A DNA stretch of 64,000 nt from an uncultured Verrucomicrobiae bacterium. GTDB taxonomy: Bacteria > Verrucomicrobiota > Verrucomicrobiia > Chthoniobacterales > JAFAMB01. Shown piece after piece: positions 835 to 42,017 of the stretch. The notes below the pieces were generated by a model, which saw nothing but the letters and a program-made list of their open reading frames with translations, did no database searches and had not been told where the DNA came from. The translations under genes were made by a program, and so were the position numbers. The stretch lies in assembly GCA_963762565.1 (NCBI GenBank), contig CAVXLD010000012.1, forward strand, positions 192,001-256,000. Direction: 5' to 3'. Within the stretch, counting starts at the first letter, position 1; the number at the start of each line of letters is the position of its first letter.

Positions 835-2091
835 CTATTTCAACCCCAACCGATGGTCATGCTCGATCTGGAGTAAGCGATTATACTTCGCTAAACGCTC
901 GGATTGCGTGATCGAGCCGACCTTGATGAAATCTCCGGCCCAACCCACCGCGAGATCAGCTAGCCAGTTATCTTCGGTCTCGCCGCTGCGCGCACTAATC
1001 GAGACCTGCCATCCTACGGATCGAGCAAGTTCATAACTATGCTTGGCTTCGGTTAATGTACCGATCTGGTTGACCTTCAACAGTAGCGCATTCGCCGCCC
1101 GCCGGTCGATCGCCCGTCGAATCCGCGCGGGATTCGTGCACGTTAAGTCGTCAGCCAGAGTTAAGCATCGATCGCCGAGGTGTTGTCGTAGCGCTGGCCA
1201 ATGATCCCAATCTTCCTCGGCCAACCCGTCCTCAACGCTGACCATTGGATAACGCCTCGCCCATGAGCTAACGGTCTCGATGAGTTCTGAAGGTGAAAGC
1301 GTTTTATCGTCTAGCTGATACAGACCGTCCGGATTGATAAAGTGGCTGGCAGCGACGTCTACGGCAAGAGCGACTTGATATCCCGGTGCGTAGCCCGCAG
1401 CTTCGATCGCTTCCACGGCGGTATCGAGCATTTCTGAGCTACTTGCAAAAGGAGGGGCTAATCCGCCTTCGTCTGCGGTTAGCGCTGGAGTCGAATACCT
1501 TTTTCTTATTATCTCAGCAGCTTGTTGATAAATGTCGTACATCTGGGCCAGGCGTTCCGAGATACTTAAGCCGGACTGCGGGACAATCAGCACGTCCTGA
1601 ATGGCGACCTGGCCGAAGGCATGTTTGCCGCCGCTAAAGAGGTTAATGGTTAATCCCGGCAAGCGAGGAGAAGCCGGAGATAACAATGACGCAAAATATT
1701 CGAAGAGCTCTACGTGCTGGTGAGCGGCGGCTGCGCGGGCAAATGCTAACGAGACAGCGAGGATAGCGTTGGCTCCGAGGCGGGATTTATCTGGGGTTCC
1801 GTCGAGTTCCAGGAGTCGAGTATCCAGCTGCTCCTGATCAGCGAACGACTCATGCTTTAAGGCAGCTGCAATCGGCCCTCGAATATTGCCAACCGCCTGT
1901 TGGCAGCCCAAGCCGCGGAAGCGTCTCCCGCCGTCGCGGATTTCTTTGGCTTCTGCCCGGCCGGTCGACGCACCTGATGGAATCGAAACATTAACCATCG
2001 CTCCGTCCTCTAGTTTCACCGCAGCCGCTACGGTTGGACGGCCGCGACTATCCAAAATCTCCCAGGCATCAACCGTCTCGACTTTGATCAT
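835..2091 (-). CDS. Enolase paralogue (phosphopyruvate hydratase family, divergent active site)
   Basis: EILDSRGRPTV, PSGASTG, LGANAILAVS, DEGG, EDG, DDL, LLKVNQIGT and SERLAKYNRLL motifs; SARSGET replaces SHRSGET. Confidence 0.9.
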   Translation of the reverse strand: MIKVETVDAWEILDSRGRPTVAAAVKLEDGAMVNVSIPSGASTGRAEAKEIRDGGRRFRGLGCQQAVGNIRGPIAAALKHESFADQEQLDTRLLELDGTPDKSRLGANAILAVSLAFARAAAAHQHVELFEYFASLLSPASPRLPGLTINLFSGGKHAFGQVAIQDVLIVPQSGLSISERLAQMYDIYQQAAEIIRKRYSTPALTADEGGLAPPFASSSEMLDTAVEAIEAAGYAPGYQVALAVDVAASHFINPDGLYQLDDKTLSPSELIETVSSWARRYPMVSVEDGLAEEDWDHWPALRQHLGDRCLTLADDLTCTNPARIRRAIDRRAANALLLKVNQIGTLTEAKHSYELARSVGWQVSISARSGETEDNWLADLAVGWAGDFIKVGSITQSERLAKYNRLLQIEHDHRLGLK

Positions 2092-3146
2092 ACGTCGATC
2101 TTCCAGGCGAATTCTTCCACCAACGCCGGCAGAGAATCAGGACGATGCCTAAGTAGATAGAGTGCAGCCTCTTTCTGTCGGCAGCGTTCATCATCGGAAA
2201 GATATTCGAGCGGCGACCGGCCTGACGTTCGGGCGAGGAGACAGGCGATGGTATTGCTTATTGCCCGGGTTTCGACTCCGTTGAACCATTGTGCCGATCC
2301 GGTTTCTGATTTGTACACTTTCCAATACTCGATTGCAGCATCTAGGAATGCCGACCGATGCTCTTTAAGGTGGAAGCCTTTGCTTAATAAGTGAGTCAGA
2401 CTGAATCCAAGATCAAACGCTGGATCACCGATGTGCACGACTTCGTGATCGAGTAGGATCAAGCGACCCTCGAAAACTAGAATATTCTTCGGACTGTAAT
2501 CCCCGTGTACGACTGTAACGCAATGGGTGCGGTTTGCTGCAATCACATCGCGTAAGAACGAGGCTGCTTCGGGAACTCTTTCTCCGGTGAATTGATAGTA
2601 GGGCTCCAACCTTAGCGTCTCAAAAAACACCCGGTCTTCAAAAGTGGGAAAAAGCTCCTTACGCAGTTCATAGCCTTTGCCATGGATACTCGCCAGCAGC
2701 CGACCGAACTGGCTGACGAAATCCCGATCAAGTCGGCCGCTGAGAAGTCGCTCTTTCCAGTTCTCGTGGGGTTCGGGTACCGCTTCCATCGTGAGCAGGT
2801 ATTGCTCTGGGTCTTCGAAAAGCAGCTTTGGAATGGTGTTTGCCGGAGTGACTAGTGGAAGATAACGCAACGCGTTGGCTTCCACTCGGATCCGGGACGG
2901 ATCACTGAACCAATCGGCTTGAACTCGTAGCTTGGACAGTGCTTGCTTTAGCACCCAGCGAGTCCCATCCGGACGCCGGAGCAGAACGGTTTTGTTTGAG
3001 ACCCCTCCGCGAAGCGCACAAAAAGTTGGGGTTTCCTGCTCCCCGATCCGTTCGTTCTCGCGCAAGTATCTCAGCAGATCATCCGCATTCTCGATATCAA
3101 GGGGCAAGGTTTGGGGTAAACGGGATGAATCTAAAGACGAGAGCAT
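2088..3146 (-). CDS. APH/choline-kinase-like phosphotransferase (5-methylthioribose kinase-like)
   Basis: GGVSN P-loop, VLKQAL, HGDYSPKNIL catalytic loop, LLDHE and GDPAFDLG; 4-nt overlap with the enolase gene. Confidence 0.85.
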   Translation of the reverse strand: MLSSLDSSRLPQTLPLDIENADDLLRYLRENERIGEQETPTFCALRGGVSNKTVLLRRPDGTRWVLKQALSKLRVQADWFSDPSRIRVEANALRYLPLVTPANTIPKLLFEDPEQYLLTMEAVPEPHENWKERLLSGRLDRDFVSQFGRLLASIHGKGYELRKELFPTFEDRVFFETLRLEPYYQFTGERVPEAASFLRDVIAANRTHCVTVVHGDYSPKNILVFEGRLILLDHEVVHIGDPAFDLGFSLTHLLSKGFHLKEHRSAFLDAAIEYWKVYKSETGSAQWFNGVETRAISNTIACLLARTSGRSPLEYLSDDERCRQKEAALYLLRHRPDSLPALVEEFAWKIDV

Positions 3147-3608: not shown

Positions 3609-4751
3609 ATGGCTTACCTTGAGATCACTCAGCTGGACAAACACTACGACCGGTTTCAGGCGTTAAAGCAAATCAACCTGTCCGTTCAGAAAGAAGAATT
3701 CATTGTTTTTGTCGGTCCGTCCGGATGTGGGAAAACGACGCTTCTGCGAACGATCTCCGGGCTGGAAACACCCACCGTCGGCCAGATCACTTTGGATGGG
3801 CGAGACATTACCTATGTTCATCCATCGAAAAGGAACGTGGCGATGGTCTTCCAGAACTACGCACTTTTTCCACACCTGAGCGTCTTTGAAAATATCGCGT
3901 TTGGTCTGCGCTTGCATGGACTGTCCCGGCAAGAGATCGACCAGCGAGTGCAACGGGCAGCTAAATTGCTGCATCTCGAACCTTTACTGACGCGAAAGCC
4001 GAAACAGCTCTCCGGCGGCCAACGCCAACGGGTCGCAATCGGAAGGGCGATTGTGAAGCAGCCCAAGCTATTCTTGTTCGATGAGCCGTTGTCGAACCTT
4101 GATGCCAAGTTGCGGGTGCGGATGCGAGTCGAGCTCTTGAATCTGCATTACGAGACTCGGAATACGGCGGTCTACGTGACTCATGACCAGGTTGAAGCAA
4201 TGACGATGGCGGATCGGATCGTGATTCTAAACGACGGTCGAGTCGAGCAGGTCGGAACGCCGGTGGATCTCTACGAGCGGCCCACTAATAAATTCGTGGC
4301 CGGCTTTATCGGCTCACCGCAAATGAATTTCCTGGAGTTGACGGTAGAGACGCAACGCGAGAATGGGCTGGCGTGCGTAGCAGAAGGCCTGGGCAAGCTT
4401 ATGCTACCAATCCGAGCCGAAGCAGCAATTGACCAGAAGAAGGTTACTCTAGGAATAAGGCCCGAACACGTTCGGGTGGCCGCAACCGAGTCCAGTGTCC
4501 GGCTGCCTGCAGTCGTAAACATCGTGGAGAACCTCGGAAGCGAGAACCTTCTCCACGCCGAATTCGCCGATAACCAATTGTTGGTGGCAAAGATTGCCGG
4601 CGGCGTTGCTCCCGAGAGGAATCATCGGTTAACCCTCTTTCTGCCGGCTGAACATTTATATCTGTTCGATGAGCAGGAGAATGTGATTCCGGTTAGCCCT
4701 CTGGTCACGCCCGGAACCCCGCGTCCGCGGGAAAAGGCGAAAACCCCTTAA
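3609..4751 (+). CDS. Carbohydrate ABC transporter ATP-binding protein (MalK/UgpC family)
   Basis: Walker A GPSGCGKT, LSGGQRQR signature, FDEPLSNLDAKLR, YVTHDQ, C-terminal TOBE region (GIRPE). Confidence 0.95.
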   Translation: MAYLEITQLDKHYDRFQALKQINLSVQKEEFIVFVGPSGCGKTTLLRTISGLETPTVGQITLDGRDITYVHPSKRNVAMVFQNYALFPHLSVFENIAFGLRLHGLSRQEIDQRVQRAAKLLHLEPLLTRKPKQLSGGQRQRVAIGRAIVKQPKLFLFDEPLSNLDAKLRVRMRVELLNLHYETRNTAVYVTHDQVEAMTMADRIVILNDGRVEQVGTPVDLYERPTNKFVAGFIGSPQMNFLELTVETQRENGLACVAEGLGKLMLPIRAEAAIDQKKVTLGIRPEHVRVAATESSVRLPAVVNIVENLGSENLLHAEFADNQLLVAKIAGGVAPERNHRLTLFLPAEHLYLFDEQENVIPVSPLVTPGTPRPREKAKTP

Positions 4752-4785: not shown

Positions 4786-5880
4786 ATGAGTGCTGTTGCC
4801 GACAAGCTGCCAAAAACGATGGCGGTGATCATGTGTCACGGGCCCAAGGATTATCGACTTGAAGAACGGGCCGTACCCAAACCCGGTCCGGGCGAGGTGG
4901 TGATTCGAGTTAAAAGTACTGGGATCTGTGCCAGTGATATCAAGTGCTACACTGGCGCGGCTCTCTTTTGGGGCGATGAACATCGAAAAGGCTATTGTCA
5001 GGCGCCAGTTACACCCGGACATGAGTTTGTCGGTGAGGTCGTGGCGTTGGGTGAGGGCGCTGCGGAAAAGTACAAACTGAAAATCGGCGACCGGGCTATC
5101 AGCGAACAGATCGTACCGTGCTGGGAATGCGAGTACTGCCGAATGGGCGCGTATTGGATGTGCGCCGTTCACGATATTTACGGTTTCCGCCAACGTACGT
5201 TTGGGTCATGGGCGGAGTACATGTTGTTCCCGGCGGGGTCGCTGAATTACAAGGTGCCGGAAACGATTCCTTGGCATCACGCGGTTTTCATTGAGCCGCT
5301 TGCTTGTTCCATTCATGCGGTCGAGCGCGGTGATATCAAATATCAGGATACGGTGGTTATCGCCGGTTGTGGACCGTTGGGTCTGGGAATGGTTGCGGCG
5401 GCCAAAATGAAAGGGCCGGAGCGAATCATTGCTTTGGATCTGAGCGATGAACGGTTGGAAGTCGCTAAGGGCTGCGGAGCGGATATCGGGATCAATCCGA
5501 AAAAGGGAGATGCCATCGAACAAGTGCGCGCACTGACCGGCGGGTACGGGTGCGATGTTTATATCGAGGCGACAGGGCATCCGAGTGCGGTTGAGCAAGG
5601 CCTGCACATGATTCGTAAACTAGGCACCTTTGTTGAATTTAGTGTGATGCGGGAAAAGGTGACGGTTGACTGGACGATCATCGGCGACACGAAAGAGCTC
5701 AACGTCCACGGGTCTCATCTAGGTCCTCATTGCTATCCGGTCGCGATCCGAATGATCGAACAAGGCCTGCTGCCGATGGATCAAATCGTAACTCATCGGC
5801 TGGGCATGGGCGATTACCAGAAGGGTATCGATATGGTTATTTCAGGGCTGACCTCAGTGAAAGTCACGCTAGAACCTTAA
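4786..5880 (+). CDS. Zinc-dependent polyol dehydrogenase, erythritol/L-threitol dehydrogenase (EltD)-like
   Basis: MDR motifs GICASD, PGHEFVG, structural-Zn CWECEYC..C, GCGPLG; EltD-like features FWGDE, SEQIVPCW, VTVDWTIIGDTKEL, HLGP recalled from mycobacterial EltD. Confidence 0.8.
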   Translation: MSAVADKLPKTMAVIMCHGPKDYRLEERAVPKPGPGEVVIRVKSTGICASDIKCYTGAALFWGDEHRKGYCQAPVTPGHEFVGEVVALGEGAAEKYKLKIGDRAISEQIVPCWECEYCRMGAYWMCAVHDIYGFRQRTFGSWAEYMLFPAGSLNYKVPETIPWHHAVFIEPLACSIHAVERGDIKYQDTVVIAGCGPLGLGMVAAAKMKGPERIIALDLSDERLEVAKGCGADIGINPKKGDAIEQVRALTGGYGCDVYIEATGHPSAVEQGLHMIRKLGTFVEFSVMREKVTVDWTIIGDTKELNVHGSHLGPHCYPVAIRMIEQGLLPMDQIVTHRLGMGDYQKGIDMVISGLTSVKVTLEP

Positions 5881-5921
5881 CAAACAACATCTGATCACGA
5901 TGTAAACTAAGGACAAAACAA

Positions 5922-6344
5922 ATGCCATCCCCGGACTTGCGTCAGCAACTAGACCTAGTTCGCTCTATTCAGCCGGCGCTCCATGTTACCCAAAACTGGA
6001 ACTACGAGAATCCAGAGCCTCTGTACAAGGCCTATATGCACCCGCCTCACGATGTGGGCGGTCAGTACGATGTCCCAGTGAATCACGAGGAAAAGGAAGA
6101 AGAGGAATGGGAACTGAATACTTACGTTACGTGCGAAGTCTTGGGCTGGAGAGGTGTATGGACCGCTGAGGAGCGAAGGCGCCGGGCGGATAACGATTTG
6201 GGTTATACGCTTTACCTGGGTATGCCGTATTACGCACGGTGGATTTGGGCGGCAGCCAAGATGCTGGTCGACAAAAAGCATATTTCGCTGGCCGAACTGC
6301 AGGAAAAAATTGCGGAGGTTAAGGCTCGTCATGAAAAAAAGTAA
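5922..6344 (+). CDS. scnB: Thiocyanate hydrolase beta subunit
   Basis: QPALH, PHDVGG, EKEEEEWELNT, WRGVWTAEERRR and YLGMPYY.RW as in Thiobacillus ScnB; RBS AAGGA. Confidence 0.9.
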   Translation: MPSPDLRQQLDLVRSIQPALHVTQNWNYENPEPLYKAYMHPPHDVGGQYDVPVNHEEKEEEEWELNTYVTCEVLGWRGVWTAEERRRRADNDLGYTLYLGMPYYARWIWAAAKMLVDKKHISLAELQEKIAEVKARHEKK

Positions 6345-6660
6345 GACTACGGACGGGCCCGGGAAAGCGCCTGGGACGCGGAGCCTTTATAAAGTCGGCG
6401 ATCAAGTCCGGGTGCGGGATATGCCGTACATGTTCTACACTCGTTCGCAACTGTATACGCGCGGTGTTTTGGGGACCATCGCCGCTCTCACCTACAAGGA
6501 CCTCATCCCCGAGGAGGAAGCCTTCAACTGGGATGGGCAGGTCGAACAGTATTATATTGTGCGATTTCGCCAGAAGGATCTTTGGCCGGAGTATCCTTTC
6601 GACAACGATACCTTACAGACGGAGTGCCCTCACCGTTGGCTCGAACCTGCAACCCGCTGA
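6331..6660 (+). CDS. scnA: Thiocyanate hydrolase alpha subunit (SH3-like; NHase beta C-terminal homologue)
   Basis: VGDQVRVRD..FYTR..YTRG..GTI, EEEAF, F.QKDLWPEY, NDTLQTE; ATG 6331 with upstream GGAGG overlaps the scnB stop. Confidence 0.9.
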   Translation: MKKSKTTDGPGKAPGTRSLYKVGDQVRVRDMPYMFYTRSQLYTRGVLGTIAALTYKDLIPEEEAFNWDGQVEQYYIVRFRQKDLWPEYPFDNDTLQTECPHRWLEPATR

Positions 6661-7415
6661 TGAGCCATAAAGAAAAGAATATGAGCCATACACATACTCA
6701 CGGAAATTCTGGTCATACCCCTCACAAAGCGGCTCCGATGGTGGAAGAAATAACCGACTACGAGGTTTTAGAAATTGCCGTACGGGAGCTTGCGATTGAG
6801 CACGGTCTCTTCACCGCAGAGGATCATCGCAGATTCACGGAGTGGGCAGAATCGATTGGACCAGCGGCGGGTTCTCGATTGGTGGCGAAAGCGTGGACCG
6901 ATCCCGCTTTCAAGGCCCGTGCCCTGAAAGACGGCGTCAAAGCTTGCAAGGAAGTCGGCGTCGATTGGGCGGAGCCGACGGGATTCGGCACTCCGAGCGA
7001 TTACATGGAATTTCATCTGCTTGAAGATACGCCAACCCTGCATCATGTGATTGTGTGTACGCTCTGCTCGTGTTATCCGCGCCCCTTGCTGGGAATGTCG
7101 CCGGAATGGTACCGCACCACTAATTACCGCCGCAGGTTAGTCCGCTGGCCCCGTCAAGTCCTGGCAGAGTTTGGGTTAATCCTTCCGCCCGAGGTGGAGG
7201 TACGCGTAGAGGACTCGAACCAGAAGTGCCGCTTTATGGTTCTTCCGATGCGACCCAAAGGGACCGAGAAATGGACCGAGAAGCAACTGGAGGCGATTGT
7301 CACACGTGATTGCATGATTGGAGTCGCGCTGCCAAAACCGGGACGAACAGCAGACGTTCACCCAATCCAAAAGGCTCGACGGCCTGTGAAGAGCTCGCAT
7401 CAGGAGGGCGCCTGA
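6660..7415 (+). CDS. scnC: Thiocyanate hydrolase gamma subunit (Co-binding catalytic subunit)
   Basis: Co-type metal motif VCTLCSCYPRP, His-rich N-terminus, APMVEE, FGTPSDY, SPEWYR..NYRRRLVRWPRQVLAEFGL; start 6660 (TGATG coupling) or 6681. Confidence 0.93.
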   Translation: MSHKEKNMSHTHTHGNSGHTPHKAAPMVEEITDYEVLEIAVRELAIEHGLFTAEDHRRFTEWAESIGPAAGSRLVAKAWTDPAFKARALKDGVKACKEVGVDWAEPTGFGTPSDYMEFHLLEDTPTLHHVIVCTLCSCYPRPLLGMSPEWYRTTNYRRRLVRWPRQVLAEFGLILPPEVEVRVEDSNQKCRFMVLPMRPKGTEKWTEKQLEAIVTRDCMIGVALPKPGRTADVHPIQKARRPVKSSHQEGA

Positions 7416-7750
7416 TGAATGCCGATCGGATTGCGCTCTTGGAGGCTACTCGCAATCAAGACAAGGCATGGGAGGTGCTGGCCCCGCGGTATGGGGTGAC
7501 TAACCTAAATCCACCTTGGAAAACGAGTCTTACCGCAATGTGTGACTGCCTTGCGGTCAGCGGAGCACTTCCGGCGCTGGACCGGCGGAAAGCTGAGGAT
7601 GCGCTGGCAGAGACCGTATATATGGACGTACCTTCGCCCGAACGTCAGTTGCTCGCACTTGTCCATACCATGGTCAGCCGCGGTCTGGTGACCGAGGCGG
7701 ATCTGGCGAGCCGAATGCGTACTATTCGAGCGCGGCTGGAAGCGGTTTAG
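7415..7750 (+). CDS. SCNase activator / metallochaperone (P15K-like, NHase accessory fold)
   Basis: 111 aa directly after scnC (AGGAGG RBS, TGATG coupling); NHase-beta-N-like pattern PPW...DRR..ED...Y..PE.QLLA...GLVTEADL..RM. Confidence 0.75.
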   Translation: MNADRIALLEATRNQDKAWEVLAPRYGVTNLNPPWKTSLTAMCDCLAVSGALPALDRRKAEDALAETVYMDVPSPERQLLALVHTMVSRGLVTEADLASRMRTIRARLEAV

Positions 7751-7814
7751 GGCAGCAATATCGCACTGGTCTGCAACCAAACCGCAATTTTGCGCGCACC
7801 GAGGCTGATATAGG

Positions 7815-8873
7815 ATGATTTGGAGGCAGTTTAGACGGGTTTTCAAGGACCGGGCAGCTGATCTCCGCGTTTCGATCATCGGTATCTATCTCATTCTTTT
7901 CGCGATGAATCTTGCCGCGTGGGCCTGGGCGTTTGCGGCTTTTTATTCGCATCCGGTGCTGTTAGGAACTTCGTTATTAGCCTACAGCTTTGGTCTTCGG
8001 CATGCCGTGGATGCGGACCACATCGCGGCGATCGACAACGTTACCAGGAAATTGATGAACGACGGAAAACGCCCGGTTTCCGTTGGCTTCTTTTTCTCGC
8101 TTGGTCATTCAACCGTGGTTTTACTCGCTTGCTTTGCCGTGGCTCTGACCACGAGCGCGTTGCAAAATCGTTTTGGCCCTCTTCAGCGGGTCGGTGGAAT
8201 AATTGGTACTTCTGTATCTGCGGGTGTCTTGTTCGCGTTAGCGTTCATGAACATCCTGATCATGACCAGGATTTGGCAGACGTTCCAGCGGGTACGGCAT
8301 GGAGGACGTTATGTCGACGAGGACATGGATATTATTCTGGCGCGAGGAGGTTTACTGGCCCGGATTTTCCGACCGCTCTTCAGGTTGATCACGAAAAGCC
8401 GGCACATGTATCCATTGGGTTTTTTGTTTGGGCTAGGATTTGAGACCGCCACAGAAGTGGCCCTTGTAGGTCTATCCGCCTCGGAAACCGCCAAAAACTT
8501 GCCGATTTGGTCAGTTCTCGTTTTTCCGGCTTTATTTACGGCCGGCATGTCGATGGTGGATACAACGGACGGGATTCTGATGCTGGGCGCTTACGGCTGG
8601 GCATTCTTAAACCCGTTGCGAAAGCTTTTTTACAATCTCACGGTCACAGCCGTCTCCGTGTTGGTGGCGGTACTGATCGGGGGAGTGGAGACCTTGGGCC
8701 TTATCGGTGATCAGCTCTCTTTTACCGGCTGGTTTTGGGATATTGTCCGCTCGGCCAACGACAATTTTGGCCTGATCGGTTACCTTATCATTGGGTTGTT
8801 CGTAGCGAGTTGGTTCCTGTCGCTGATTATCTATCGAATCAAGGGGTACGATAAGGTGGTGGTGTCAAATTAA
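7815..8873 (+). CDS. NiCoT (HoxN/HupN/NixA/NhlF family) high-affinity Ni/Co permease
   Basis: Signature GLRHAVDADHIAAIDNVTRK, FSLGHSTVV, GFLFGLGFETATE, DTTDG. Confidence 0.95.
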   Translation: MIWRQFRRVFKDRAADLRVSIIGIYLILFAMNLAAWAWAFAAFYSHPVLLGTSLLAYSFGLRHAVDADHIAAIDNVTRKLMNDGKRPVSVGFFFSLGHSTVVLLACFAVALTTSALQNRFGPLQRVGGIIGTSVSAGVLFALAFMNILIMTRIWQTFQRVRHGGRYVDEDMDIILARGGLLARIFRPLFRLITKSRHMYPLGFLFGLGFETATEVALVGLSASETAKNLPIWSVLVFPALFTAGMSMVDTTDGILMLGAYGWAFLNPLRKLFYNLTVTAVSVLVAVLIGGVETLGLIGDQLSFTGWFWDIVRSANDNFGLIGYLIIGLFVASWFLSLIIYRIKGYDKVVVSN

Positions 8874-8940
8874 ACGTAGTTGGCACCACTCGACCAAAGA
8901 CCGCCATTCTTGACCCGTGCCGGCACACTCACAAGGCACT

Positions 8941-9110
8941 TCGTTCTCGTCCTCGTCGTCGTCCTTCCGACTTCGCCAACGCCTGGTTGTGGAGCGCGCC
9001 TCGCTTGCGAGGCCGAGTTCGAGCGGTTGGCAACATAGAGCATAGGCTTCGTCGGACAGGCTGTCCTCGAATCCGGCCACGCGGAGTGATGTAGTGTTGG
9101 AGTACTGCGC
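8941..9110 (+). repeat. Composite (nested) dispersed intergenic repeat, copy 1
   Basis: Highly similar to the reverse complement of 54378-54590 over about 150 bp. Confidence 0.85.
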
Positions 9111-9177
9111 CAAGTCCGAAAAGCATCCGCCTTGGCGGATTGGAGATGCTGAATGGTTCTCAGTTTTTTTTGTGCGT

Positions 9178-9263: not shown

Positions 9264-9602
9264 ATGCAATACTTGCTATTGATCTATGAGAACGAAAAAC
9301 GTTTCGCTACCGGTTACGACCCGGCAGAAATGAAAGAGTATATGGCCTTCGGCGAGACGTACGGGAAAGCTATTAAAGGTGGGAACGCGCTTCGAGCGAC
9401 AACCACAGCCACCACCGTCCGAGTCCGTGACGGCAAGCGTCTGACCACGGACGGGCCGTTTGCGGAGACCAAAGAACAGTTAGGTGGGTTTTATTTAGTC
9501 GAGGCGGACGACCTTGACCATGCCATCGAGATGGCCGGGAAAATCCCGGGCGCCCGCCACGGCTCTGTCGAAGTCCGGCCGATCGAGACATTCGGGCAGT
9601 GA
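9264..9602 (+). CDS. YciI-family DGPF-domain protein
   Basis: TTDGPFAETKEQLGGFY motif. Confidence 0.9.
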   Translation: MQYLLLIYENEKRFATGYDPAEMKEYMAFGETYGKAIKGGNALRATTTATTVRVRDGKRLTTDGPFAETKEQLGGFYLVEADDLDHAIEMAGKIPGARHGSVEVRPIETFGQ

Positions 9603-10828
9603 GAGAACTAGAGGACGTCTTCCGTAATGAATGGGGGCGGATATTGTCCGCCCTCATTTCTGCGCTGGGTGACTTCGATCTTGCAGAAGAGGTGCTGCAG
9701 GAGGCTTTCTCTTCCGCCGTTGTCCAATGGTCTACGGGTGCACCCCAAAATCCGCGGGCCTGGCTCTACGCAACGGCCAAACATAAAGCGATCGATATCA
9801 TCCGGCGCCGGACTAACTTTGCCGAAAAGCAGGCAGAGTTGGTGATACGGGAAGAATGCGGCCGCACCGACGCTATTGATGGCGAAGAGGACTCTGTTGT
9901 GCCTGACGAACGATTACGATTGATTTTTACTTGTTGCCATCCCGCGTTGCCACCAGAAGCGCAAGCTGCCTTAACCCTGCGTACGCTATGCGGGCTGACA
10001 ACGGAAGAGATCGCCCACGCTTTTTTGTTGCCGACCGCTACCATTGCCCAACGGTTGGTGCGCGCGAAAACCAAGATTCGAAACGCAGGCATCCCTTATC
10101 GGGTTCCCTCTGCCCCGGACGTATCCGCTCGGCTATCCGTAGTGATGGCGGTGATTTACCTCGTATTTAACGAAGGGTACTCAGCGGCACTCGGCGATAC
10201 CCTGGTGCGTCACGAGCTTTGCGCTGAGGCTATTCGGCTGGCGCGATTGTTGCGACTGCTCTTACCAGAGCCGGAACCAGAATTAGACGCGTTGTTGGCT
10301 TTGATGCTGTTGCATGACTCTCGCCGAGGCGCTCGCGAAGATGCTAATGGCGATCTGGTTCTTCTGGCCGACCAGGATCGTACCCGTTGGAACCGCTCAC
10401 AAATCGACGAAGGGTGTGCCTTGGTGCAATCGGTGTTTCAGCAGGGTCCAATCGGACCCTATGCCATCGAGGCGGCCATCGCAGCTTTGCATGCAAGTGC
10501 CCCCTGCGCTGAGGAGACTGATTGGAAACAGATCAGTGCGCTCTATGGGCGGCTGTTTGCGCTACACCATTCGCCGGTAGTTGCCCTCAACCGCGCGGCA
10601 GCGATGTCGATGGCAGAAGGGCCAGAAGCGGCATTACCGCTGGTTAATGCTCTAGAGTCGTCGCTTGAAGATTACCATTTGTGGCACGCTACACGTGCCG
10701 ATTTGCTGCGACGACTCGGGCGTAAAGCAGAGGCCGCCGTTGCTTATCGGCGTGCTCTGGAACTGACGGAGAATGCGGTAGAGCGACGCTTTCTCACGCG
10801 CCGCCTGGAGGCACTTTCAGACAATTGA
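9599..10828 (+). CDS. ECF sigma factor with C-terminal TPR-like extension (ECF42 group)
   Basis: DFDLAEEVLQEAF, RLRLIFTCCHPAL, GLTTEEIAHAF, IYLVFNEGY, SPVVALNRA; coupled to the DGPF gene. Confidence 0.9.
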   Translation: MRELEDVFRNEWGRILSALISALGDFDLAEEVLQEAFSSAVVQWSTGAPQNPRAWLYATAKHKAIDIIRRRTNFAEKQAELVIREECGRTDAIDGEEDSVVPDERLRLIFTCCHPALPPEAQAALTLRTLCGLTTEEIAHAFLLPTATIAQRLVRAKTKIRNAGIPYRVPSAPDVSARLSVVMAVIYLVFNEGYSAALGDTLVRHELCAEAIRLARLLRLLLPEPEPELDALLALMLLHDSRRGAREDANGDLVLLADQDRTRWNRSQIDEGCALVQSVFQQGPIGPYAIEAAIAALHASAPCAEETDWKQISALYGRLFALHHSPVVALNRAAAMSMAEGPEAALPLVNALESSLEDYHLWHATRADLLRRLGRKAEAAVAYRRALELTENAVERRFLTRRLEALSDN

Positions 10829-29092: not shown

Positions 29093-30621
<1,529 letters not shown>

Positions 30622-41930: not shown

Positions 41931-42017
41931 CTGCCGCGAAGCGGCTAAACATGATAGCCCAGGGCTTTAGCCCTGGGTGGCCGTACCATGACATGCGCCC
42001 TCACGAGTGGCGCCCGA
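41931..42017 (+). repeat. REP-like repeat (AGCCCAGGGCTTTAGCCCTGGG...GCCCTCACGAGTGGCGCCCGA), intact copy
   Basis: Homologous to 63148-63233 and to the IS-interrupted copy at 63327-63345. Confidence 0.8.

Follow-up and report, generated by a model that had tools for sequence, protein, structure and literature searches.

The 64,000-nt stretch of contig CAVXLD010000012.1 analyzed here (the window) comes from an uncultured Verrucomicrobiae bacterium. It carries five adjacent genes, scnB, scnA, scnC and genes for a P15K-like protein and a NiCoT permease, which appear to form a cassette for thiocyanate hydrolase (SCNase, EC 3.5.5.8), an enzyme with non-corrin cobalt and oxidized cysteines that converts SCN- to NH3 and carbonyl sulfide (COS). 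All five open reading frames (ORFs) were undamaged on the plus strand, at the positions given by a first-pass annotation made from the letters alone. We refer to the window genome as G000, to scn loci by L numbers and to compared genomes by G numbers; statements from cited papers refer to the parts of these papers that were available.

Cassette genes and identity of the enzyme

For every subunit, the top solved relative was the corresponding chain of the Thiobacillus thioparus SCNase. ScnB matched 2dd4_B (E 6e-45, about 53% identity), ScnA matched 2dd4_A (E 2e-27, about 52%) and ScnC matched 2dd4_C (E 2e-103, about 62%; the three identities were counted by hand on the alignments), and these E values exclude chance similarity. 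ScnC passed the SCNase equivalog model TIGR03887 (380.9 bits, cut-off 291.45) and failed the nitrile hydratase (NHase) model TIGR01323 (212.3 bits, cut-off 249.85). The two beta halves also failed the NHase beta model TIGR03888 (41.7 and 42.4, cut-off 152.2).

Residues 125-135 of ScnC are VCTLCSCYPRP (C126, C129, S130, C131 and R134), of which VCTLCSCY is identical to 2dd4_C, and the SCNase-specific insert ahead of this metal motif is retained. ScnB has AEERRRR at residues 82-88; its R85, R86 and Y103 align with R90, R91 and Y108 of the T. thioparus beta subunit, and R134 of ScnC aligns with gamma R136, all four of which we take to be pocket residues. NHases have W at the position of the gamma arginine, as does the solved variant 3vyg. 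ScnA retains the arginine of YTR (R38), and all pocket and metal residues that could be mapped are the same as in the T. thioparus enzyme. The first-pass annotation had regarded these arginines as specific to SCNases. They are indeed present in beta and gamma, but the gamma CYPR is not exclusive to SCNases: five relatives with 46-50% identity, all scoring under the SCNase cut-off, share it, and this weakens the case for the enzyme. The gamma arginine alone is thus not diagnostic; the whole-model score together with the SCNase-type insert is.

The window cassette shares with ScnBAC and P15K of T. thioparus THI115 (2DD4, 2DD5, 2DXB, 2DXC, 2ZZD, 3VYG; TIGR03887) the three-subunit split, the order B-A-C-activator, the Co-type motif and the pocket arginines and tyrosine. 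Co-type NHases (TIGR01323/TIGR03888) have the same fold, metal motif and activator logic, but differ in their unsplit beta chain, CYPWP and lack of the SCNase insert. One such ordinary NHase is encoded elsewhere in the window genome (C1:1147.5-1149.1 kb, L081; CYPWP, unsplit beta, accessory protein). A plain NHase was rejected for the window locus because both NHase models failed, the motif is CYPRP and not CYPWP, and the genome has a separate NHase. The family assignment made by the first-pass annotation was therefore borne out, and so were the order beta-alpha-gamma (by the chain matches and ORF positions), the Co-type motif, activator and NiCoT (by alignments and family models) and the division of the NHase beta chain into a PF21006 half (ScnB) and a PF02211 half (ScnA). 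Judged by its sequence, the enzyme is very probably an SCNase.

A scan of genome contigs found at least 547 relatives, and our comparisons of loci rest on the best 79 of these. The motif C-T-L-C-S-C-Y-P-R-P was present in all 79, and 74 had all four genes in the order B-A-C-activator, a few with frameshifts. In L033, scnA-scnC-activator occurs as a tandem duplicate with no scnB within the locus; the frameshifts in scn genes of L014, L039, L051, L075 and L078 represent decay or read errors.

The P15K-like gene lies directly after scnC in 78 of the 79 loci, and its product resembles 2dd4_B (E 7e-6). Activators of the NHase family have been described as encoded directly downstream, smaller than 17 kDa and weakly similar to the beta subunit (PMC3511329, available part), and the 111-aa product of the fourth gene agrees with this description in position, size and beta likeness. 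By these features it is predicted to be a P15K-like activator. Its predicted fold had low confidence (pLDDT 74, pTM 0.47); a fold search gave zero matches with E <0.001, the top four being SCNase beta chains (E 0.1-0.3), and there was no real similarity to the accessory protein of the genome's own NHase. The permease scored 400.9 on TIGR00802 (cut-off 333.05), with the HAxDADH motif at residues 63-69. A second NiCoT is present at C1:1299.4-1300.4 kb of the window genome.

The first four genes are closely packed. scnB and scnA overlap by 14 bp, scnA and scnC are TGATG-coupled if scnC starts at the in-frame ATG at 6660 (otherwise they are separated by 20 bp, with the start at 6681), and scnC is TGATG-coupled to the P15K-like gene; NiCoT follows uncoupled after 64 bp. 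In comparison with the same-genus copy L001, the ratios of nonsynonymous to synonymous substitution (dN/dS) of the five genes, in order, were 0.113, 0.079, 0.051, 0.156 and 0.068. The five genes are under purifying selection. Positions of the cassette genes and their neighbors are listed in Table 1, in which the right-flank labels are presumptive (from recall, or from PF20239 on the L001 orthologue).

Table 1. Features of the cassette and its surroundings (window positions)
Feature	Position	Strand	Basis or remark
MalK-like ATPase, left flank, before dehydrogenase	3609-4751
Zn-dependent alcohol/polyol dehydrogenase, left flank, outside cassette	4786..5880	+	stop 41 bp ahead of scnB
scnB, SCNase beta subunit, 140 aa (N-terminal half of NHase beta chain)	5922..6344	+	PF21006; match to 2dd4_B
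scnA, SCNase alpha subunit, 109 aa (C-terminal half of NHase beta chain)	6331..6660	+	PF02211; match to 2dd4_A
scnC, catalytic gamma subunit, 244 aa (251 if ATG at 6660)	6681..7415	+	TIGR03887; match to 2dd4_C
Putative P15K-like activator, 111 aa, weak similarity to ScnB	7415..7750	+	PF21006 above cut-off
NiCoT (HoxN/NixA/NhlF-type) Ni/Co permease	7815..8873	+	TIGR00802; HAVDADH and GLGFETATE motifs
Dispersed repeat between NiCoT and right flank	8925..9155	no strand	missing at the equivalent site of L001
YciI-like gene, right flank	9264-9602
Sigma-factor-like gene, right flank	9599-10828
16S rRNA gene, host marker of the first-pass annotation	29093..30613	+	tied to cassette site through collinearity with G402:C26

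Host, insertion site and distribution

The same-genus genome G405 contains the L001 DNA (record titled Chthoniobacterales bacterium), in which the cassette lies between the same flanks. In G402, of the same genus, contig C26 and the window are collinear between the MalK-like gene and the 16S start, and C26 has an empty site, with about 250 bp between the dehydrogenase and the next gene versus the 3.3-kb cassette region in the window; G401 likewise has no cassette at that site. Because the flanks are the same in G405 and the site is empty in collinear G402, the contig is no chimera and the cassette is a presence/absence element, which arrived in the genus at one fixed site and which some species have while others do not. 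The collinearity to the 16S rRNA gene also supports the link between scn locus and host phylum that had been drawn through the rRNA operon.

It is barely credible that the contig is chimeric, or that thiocyanate serves as an energy source as in Thiobacillus. The closest relatives outside the genus do come from Alphaproteobacteria and Binatota (among the best 79 of at least 547), but a chimera was rejected on the synteny with G405 and G402:C26 and on the GC and third-position GC (GC3) of the cassette, which resemble those of flanking genes, and SoxB, DsrA and RuBisCO had no match in the window genome (93.7% complete). This is consistent with the heterotrophy suggested by the first-pass annotation.

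The spacer between the dehydrogenase stop and scnB is 41 bp in the window (5880-5922) versus about 377 bp in L001 (L001:1090-1467), and the cassette's own promoter region may have been lost in the window genome. The repeat behind NiCoT gave 234 BLAST pieces in the genome, with many copies in same-genus genomes; it has a 28-bp core in short tandem arrays with a spacing of about 42 bp, and its RNA fold was not significant (z 0.7). Further upstream (835-3146), a divergent-looking enolase (TIGR01060 above cut-off) is coupled to an APH-family phosphotransferase, near a sugar ATP-binding cassette (ABC) ATPase and the Zn-dehydrogenase, and this region looks like a sugar/polyol catabolic unit. An Acido-Lenti-1 RNA above the Rfam cut-off occurs at 41932-41977 (minus strand) and at L001:6484-6529.

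TIGR03887 was passed by 1 of 401 phylum-sampled genomes (the window's own), 4 of 401 genomes of the order and 2 of 43 of the family. SCNase in Chthoniobacterales is rare. The first-pass annotation had considered a verrucomicrobial copy undescribed, and our literature search, which did not cover subscription papers or bioRxiv supplements, found no description of SCNase in Verrucomicrobiota, Binatota or Nitrososphaeraceae. Other copies exist within the phylum, as 4 of the best 79 loci carry Verrucomicrobiota titles; the remainder are Alphaproteobacteria, Binatota, Acidobacteriota, Beta/Gammaproteobacteria, Actinomycetota and one archaeon. Nor is the find as surprising as had been implied, since the same cassette is present in hundreds of public genomes from several phyla and JGI or NCBI entries of close relatives already carry the name thiocyanate hydrolase gamma subunit. 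In a protein search, 852 clusters among 8000 scored had E values up to 1e-80, many of them bearing this name. A comparison search of 50% representatives returned mostly fragments and NHase-like proteins, and five comparison rows were taken from these results.

A four-protein tree was built with 59 rows, 58 of the 79 loci having all four proteins near full length. In this tree the window falls in a 24-row clade in which five phylum labels are mixed. An approximately unbiased (AU) test on 30 of the 59 rows (long and distant rows omitted, the group defined by record titles) rejected a single clade for all five verrucomicrobial copies (p-AU 0.0016), and did not reject one for the four copies excluding L011 (p-AU 0.21). 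L011, situated close to one end of a 9.4-kb contig, is nested among Binatota, which reflects either a recent transfer or mis-binning. Repeated horizontal transfer of the cassette is likely.

SCNase-like genes have been reported to be widespread and polyphyletic (PMC10098168); in the available text and six supplementary files of that study Verrucomicrobia are not named, although its tree figure may include such tips. As far as their available parts go, other reports concern Thiobacillus-type degraders or general points (PMC6064718, PMC8061750, PMC5458468, PMC7193024, PMC11039419, 10.1101/2024.12.18.629290), and a study of Binatota (PMC8262859) does not mention thiocyanate. The enzyme family, its layout and its annotation are already known, and in the literature covered the host phylum is new for SCNase.

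Archaeal operons were also found. L070 (5107-7077), titled Nitrososphaeraceae archaeon, has an intact scn operon in which scnB and scnA are fused (291 aa); the operon has 57% GC inside flanks of 35-40% GC, and amoA is present in the same genome (G792). The TIGR03887 cut-off was passed in 3 of 238 genomes of this family, and a fourth has a frameshifted copy, with a likeness of about 80% at the DNA level. The archaeal copies other than L070 are L136, L137 and L138 (genomes G842, G816 and G850). Seven more genomes of the archaeal family (L139-L145) have an NHase-alpha-like gene of native GC that scores under the SCNase cut-off; its motif is VCTLCSCYPRE (CYPGE in one), and the open frames reach about 340 aa. 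We found no paper on SCNase in ammonia-oxidizing archaea among literature titles and abstract starts. An ammonia oxidizer would gain an energy source from the ammonia released from thiocyanate.

Bare cassettes and full thiocyanate clusters

Two groups of loci were set by rank and tree position ahead of counting. The full-cluster group consists of L054-L073 minus L070 (19 loci, Beta/Gammaproteobacteria), and the bare group of L001-L053, L075 and L078 (55 loci, with flanks of at most 6 kb and some short contigs). An NrtA-type binding protein and a LysR regulator are located beside scn in all 19 full clusters, with cyanase in 15 and DsrE in 12. Importer, LysR, cyanase and DsrE were found beside scn in none of the 55 bare loci, and no amidase or other catabolic gene recurs there. 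Counts in bare-group hosts refer to L001-L050 (50 of 55) and are descriptive, as these hosts are mostly incomplete, related metagenome-assembled genomes: SoxB is present in 1 of 50 versus 13 of 19 full-cluster hosts, and 13 of the 50, including G683, have a clade-D carbonic anhydrase.

The only recurring neighbor of bare cassettes is a cobalt transporter (16 of 55 loci), which is exchanged among unrelated families, within Chthoniobacterales too. It is NiCoT in L001, L004, L009, L014, L033, L034 and L040, CbtA in L032, L042 and L047, HupE/UreJ in L024, L028 and L046, and RcnA-like in L005, L008 and L017; L011 adds a partial CbtA. A CLC chloride channel upstream of L046 and a SulP sulfate permease upstream of L047 are possible SCN- entry routes, in single cases.

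The available part of PMC5328954 describes the scn clusters of T. thioparus DSM 505 and Thioalkalivibrio thiocyanodenitrificans ARhD 1. These share with the window a small hypothetical protein after scn and a cobalt uptake system that varies by species, but they also have an ABC importer, sulfur relay, SQR and cyanase, which the window cassette lacks. Compared with T. thioparus THI115, the window cassette likewise has no neighboring NitT/TauT importer, cyanase, DsrE, TusA or SQR; its host belongs to Chthoniobacterales, and cobalt would be supplied by a NiCoT permease. The window genome shows neither the adjacent importer, LysR, cyanase and sulfur relay nor the Sox/rDsr and RuBisCO of the lithotrophic COS pathway.

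With SCN- uptake and the sulfur module lost altogether, the bare-cassette clade might now act on a different small nitrile, anionic or polar (selenocyanate, an organic thiocyanate or a cyano-acid, for example), and turn over SCN- only as a side activity. The 52-62% identity to the sole structurally characterized enzyme, and a gamma arginine common to uncharacterized relatives, leave room for such a shift, but the mappable pocket residues are unchanged, the SCNase insert is kept, ScnC of the window is 73% identical to ScnC in full thiocyanate clusters (L059 and L062, for example), and the neighborhood offers no recurring amidase or other catabolic gene. We consider the shift improbable.

Proposed function and fate of the products

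We propose a working cobalt SCNase cassette that scavenges nitrogen and releases COS, and we estimate the probability of this overall reading at roughly 55%. The permease, a NiCoT family member, would import Co2+, its preference for this metal being predicted. By analogy with the NHase and SCNase literature, the P15K-like protein may deliver cobalt to ScnC and allow oxidation of two motif cysteines. Lacking a dedicated importer, the cell would take up SCN- through general anion routes or across the membrane, and, as in the T. thioparus enzyme, ScnA, ScnB and ScnC would bind it in an arginine-lined pocket and hydrolyze it to NH3 and COS. The host would be a non-sulfur-oxidizing heterotroph that gains ammonia as nitrogen, with detoxification as a side benefit. 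That nitrogen gain is the main role of the enzyme is, in our view, somewhat more probable than its opposite. The window genome also has a cyanase (C1:1043.2-1043.6 kb, off the window contig) and a urease (C12:324.6-326.3 kb). A related case is Mycobacterium smegmatis, a heterotroph with shared SCNase-type genes: its annotated thiocyanate hydrolase subunit genes msmeg_6266/6267 are listed among nitrogen-limitation-responsive C-N hydrolases, with values of 3.68 and 3.42 in the nitrogen-limitation chemostat table (PMC4617892, available part). This copy belongs to an actinobacterial clade with about 70% ScnC identity to the window.

It should be noted, however, that several observations weigh against our proposal. 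An importer beside none of the 55 bare cassettes is odd for the scavenging of a dilute anion, and the window genome has no close homolog of the full clusters' importer. Scans with regular expressions detected no sigma-54 or NtrC-like sites in the 350 bp upstream of scnB in any region scanned, so nitrogen control is not supported by a motif. The 41-bp spacer showed neither a sigma-70-like promoter nor a terminator, so transcription may run through from the upstream operon, and expression may follow the sugar/polyol operon. In addition, the absences of sulfur-oxidation and carbon-fixation genes come from a genome that is 93.7% complete and prove nothing, and no assay of any member of the bare-cassette clade was found. 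As for other signals, no conserved upstream motif was seen across the bare group, and Rfam gave no riboswitch in 14 loci and none near the cassette in the window. One RNA run (X1, 7% of words) yielded short contig pieces only, including one 200-base piece over scnC (3 differences, depth 2), and gives no evidence of expression or habitat.

The same enzyme could serve mainly for detoxification, if SCN- from plant glucosinolates or from cyanide sulfur-transfer enters unaided and is destroyed constitutively. The lack of an importer or regulator in the bare group, the lack of a shared upstream motif and the short spacer behind a housekeeping-like operon would fit this role, and thiocyanates can be exuded by roots (PMC11039419, available part). 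Yet a costly cobalt enzyme is kept under purifying selection in a genome that gathers other C-N scavenging enzymes, and toxic SCN- has not been demonstrated in ordinary soil; a mainly detoxifying role is thus unlikely.

The fate of COS depends on the carbonic anhydrases of the host. The first-pass annotation saw no COS hydrolase in the window. The genome does have a COS-hydrolase-like gene outside the window, although only as a half gene: a clade-D beta-carbonic anhydrase of which the C-terminal half is present (C1:1198266-1197973; residues 94-191 of a 194-aa orthologue, 86% identical), without the N-terminal metal ligands. PF00484 and motif-pattern screens missed this fragment, which was found with a relative's gene as query. 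Its break abuts a 3.3-kb, 99% identical tandem duplication (G000:C1:1197973-1204772, L156) containing a gene that we take to be catalase-like, and the genes upstream of the enzyme in G402 have no match in the window genome. The half gene reflects either a real deletion or an assembly fault. An intact clade-D enzyme is present in G402, G403 and G404 of the same genus (E 1e-25 to the COS hydrolase 3vqj) and in G683, and none was found in the carriers G405 (81% complete) and G519. Three other beta-carbonic anhydrases in the window genome are intact and distant from 3vqj; from their best PDB matches we presume them to be clade A, B and C-like.

These enzymes could in principle make the cassette a sulfur source, with COS turned into H2S and fixed into cysteine. 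Such a use would draw on the three intact enzymes of other clades, and clade D does occur in 13 of 50 bare-group hosts, G683 among them; however, clade D is a C-terminal fragment in the window genome and was not found in G405 or G519, and in soil, COS uptake followed clade D and correlated negatively with the expression of clade A (PMC6330096, available part). A sulfur-source role is therefore highly improbable. Since the sole clade-D gene is truncated in the assembly, the idea of COS release gains support: COS would mostly be lost as gas or slowly hydrolyzed by the clade A/B/C enzymes. Clade-D homologs have been noted in some Verrucomicrobia (available part of PMC7308577), and soil COS production was treated as putatively abiotic in the available part of PMC6330096.

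A wider possibility, which we hold only tentatively, is that a mobile, importer-less SCNase cassette has spread among soil bacteria that do not oxidize sulfur, in five or more phyla (Verrucomicrobiota, Binatota, Acidobacteriota, Myxococcota-titled and Pseudomonadota), and among archaea of an ammonia-oxidizer family. As most of these carriers lack a clade-D COS hydrolase, they would take the nitrogen out of thiocyanate and vent COS. To our knowledge, SCNase has been studied almost only in sulfur-oxidizing autotrophs. COS serves as a photosynthesis tracer, and its soil production term is usually treated as abiotic. The significance of the cassette may lie in its carriers: hosts of the closest relatives nearly all lack SoxB and mostly lack the clade-D COS hydrolase, and the ScnC sequences are direct targets for assay and metatranscriptome screens. 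If the possibility is true, these carriers would be an unrecognized biotic source of COS in soil.

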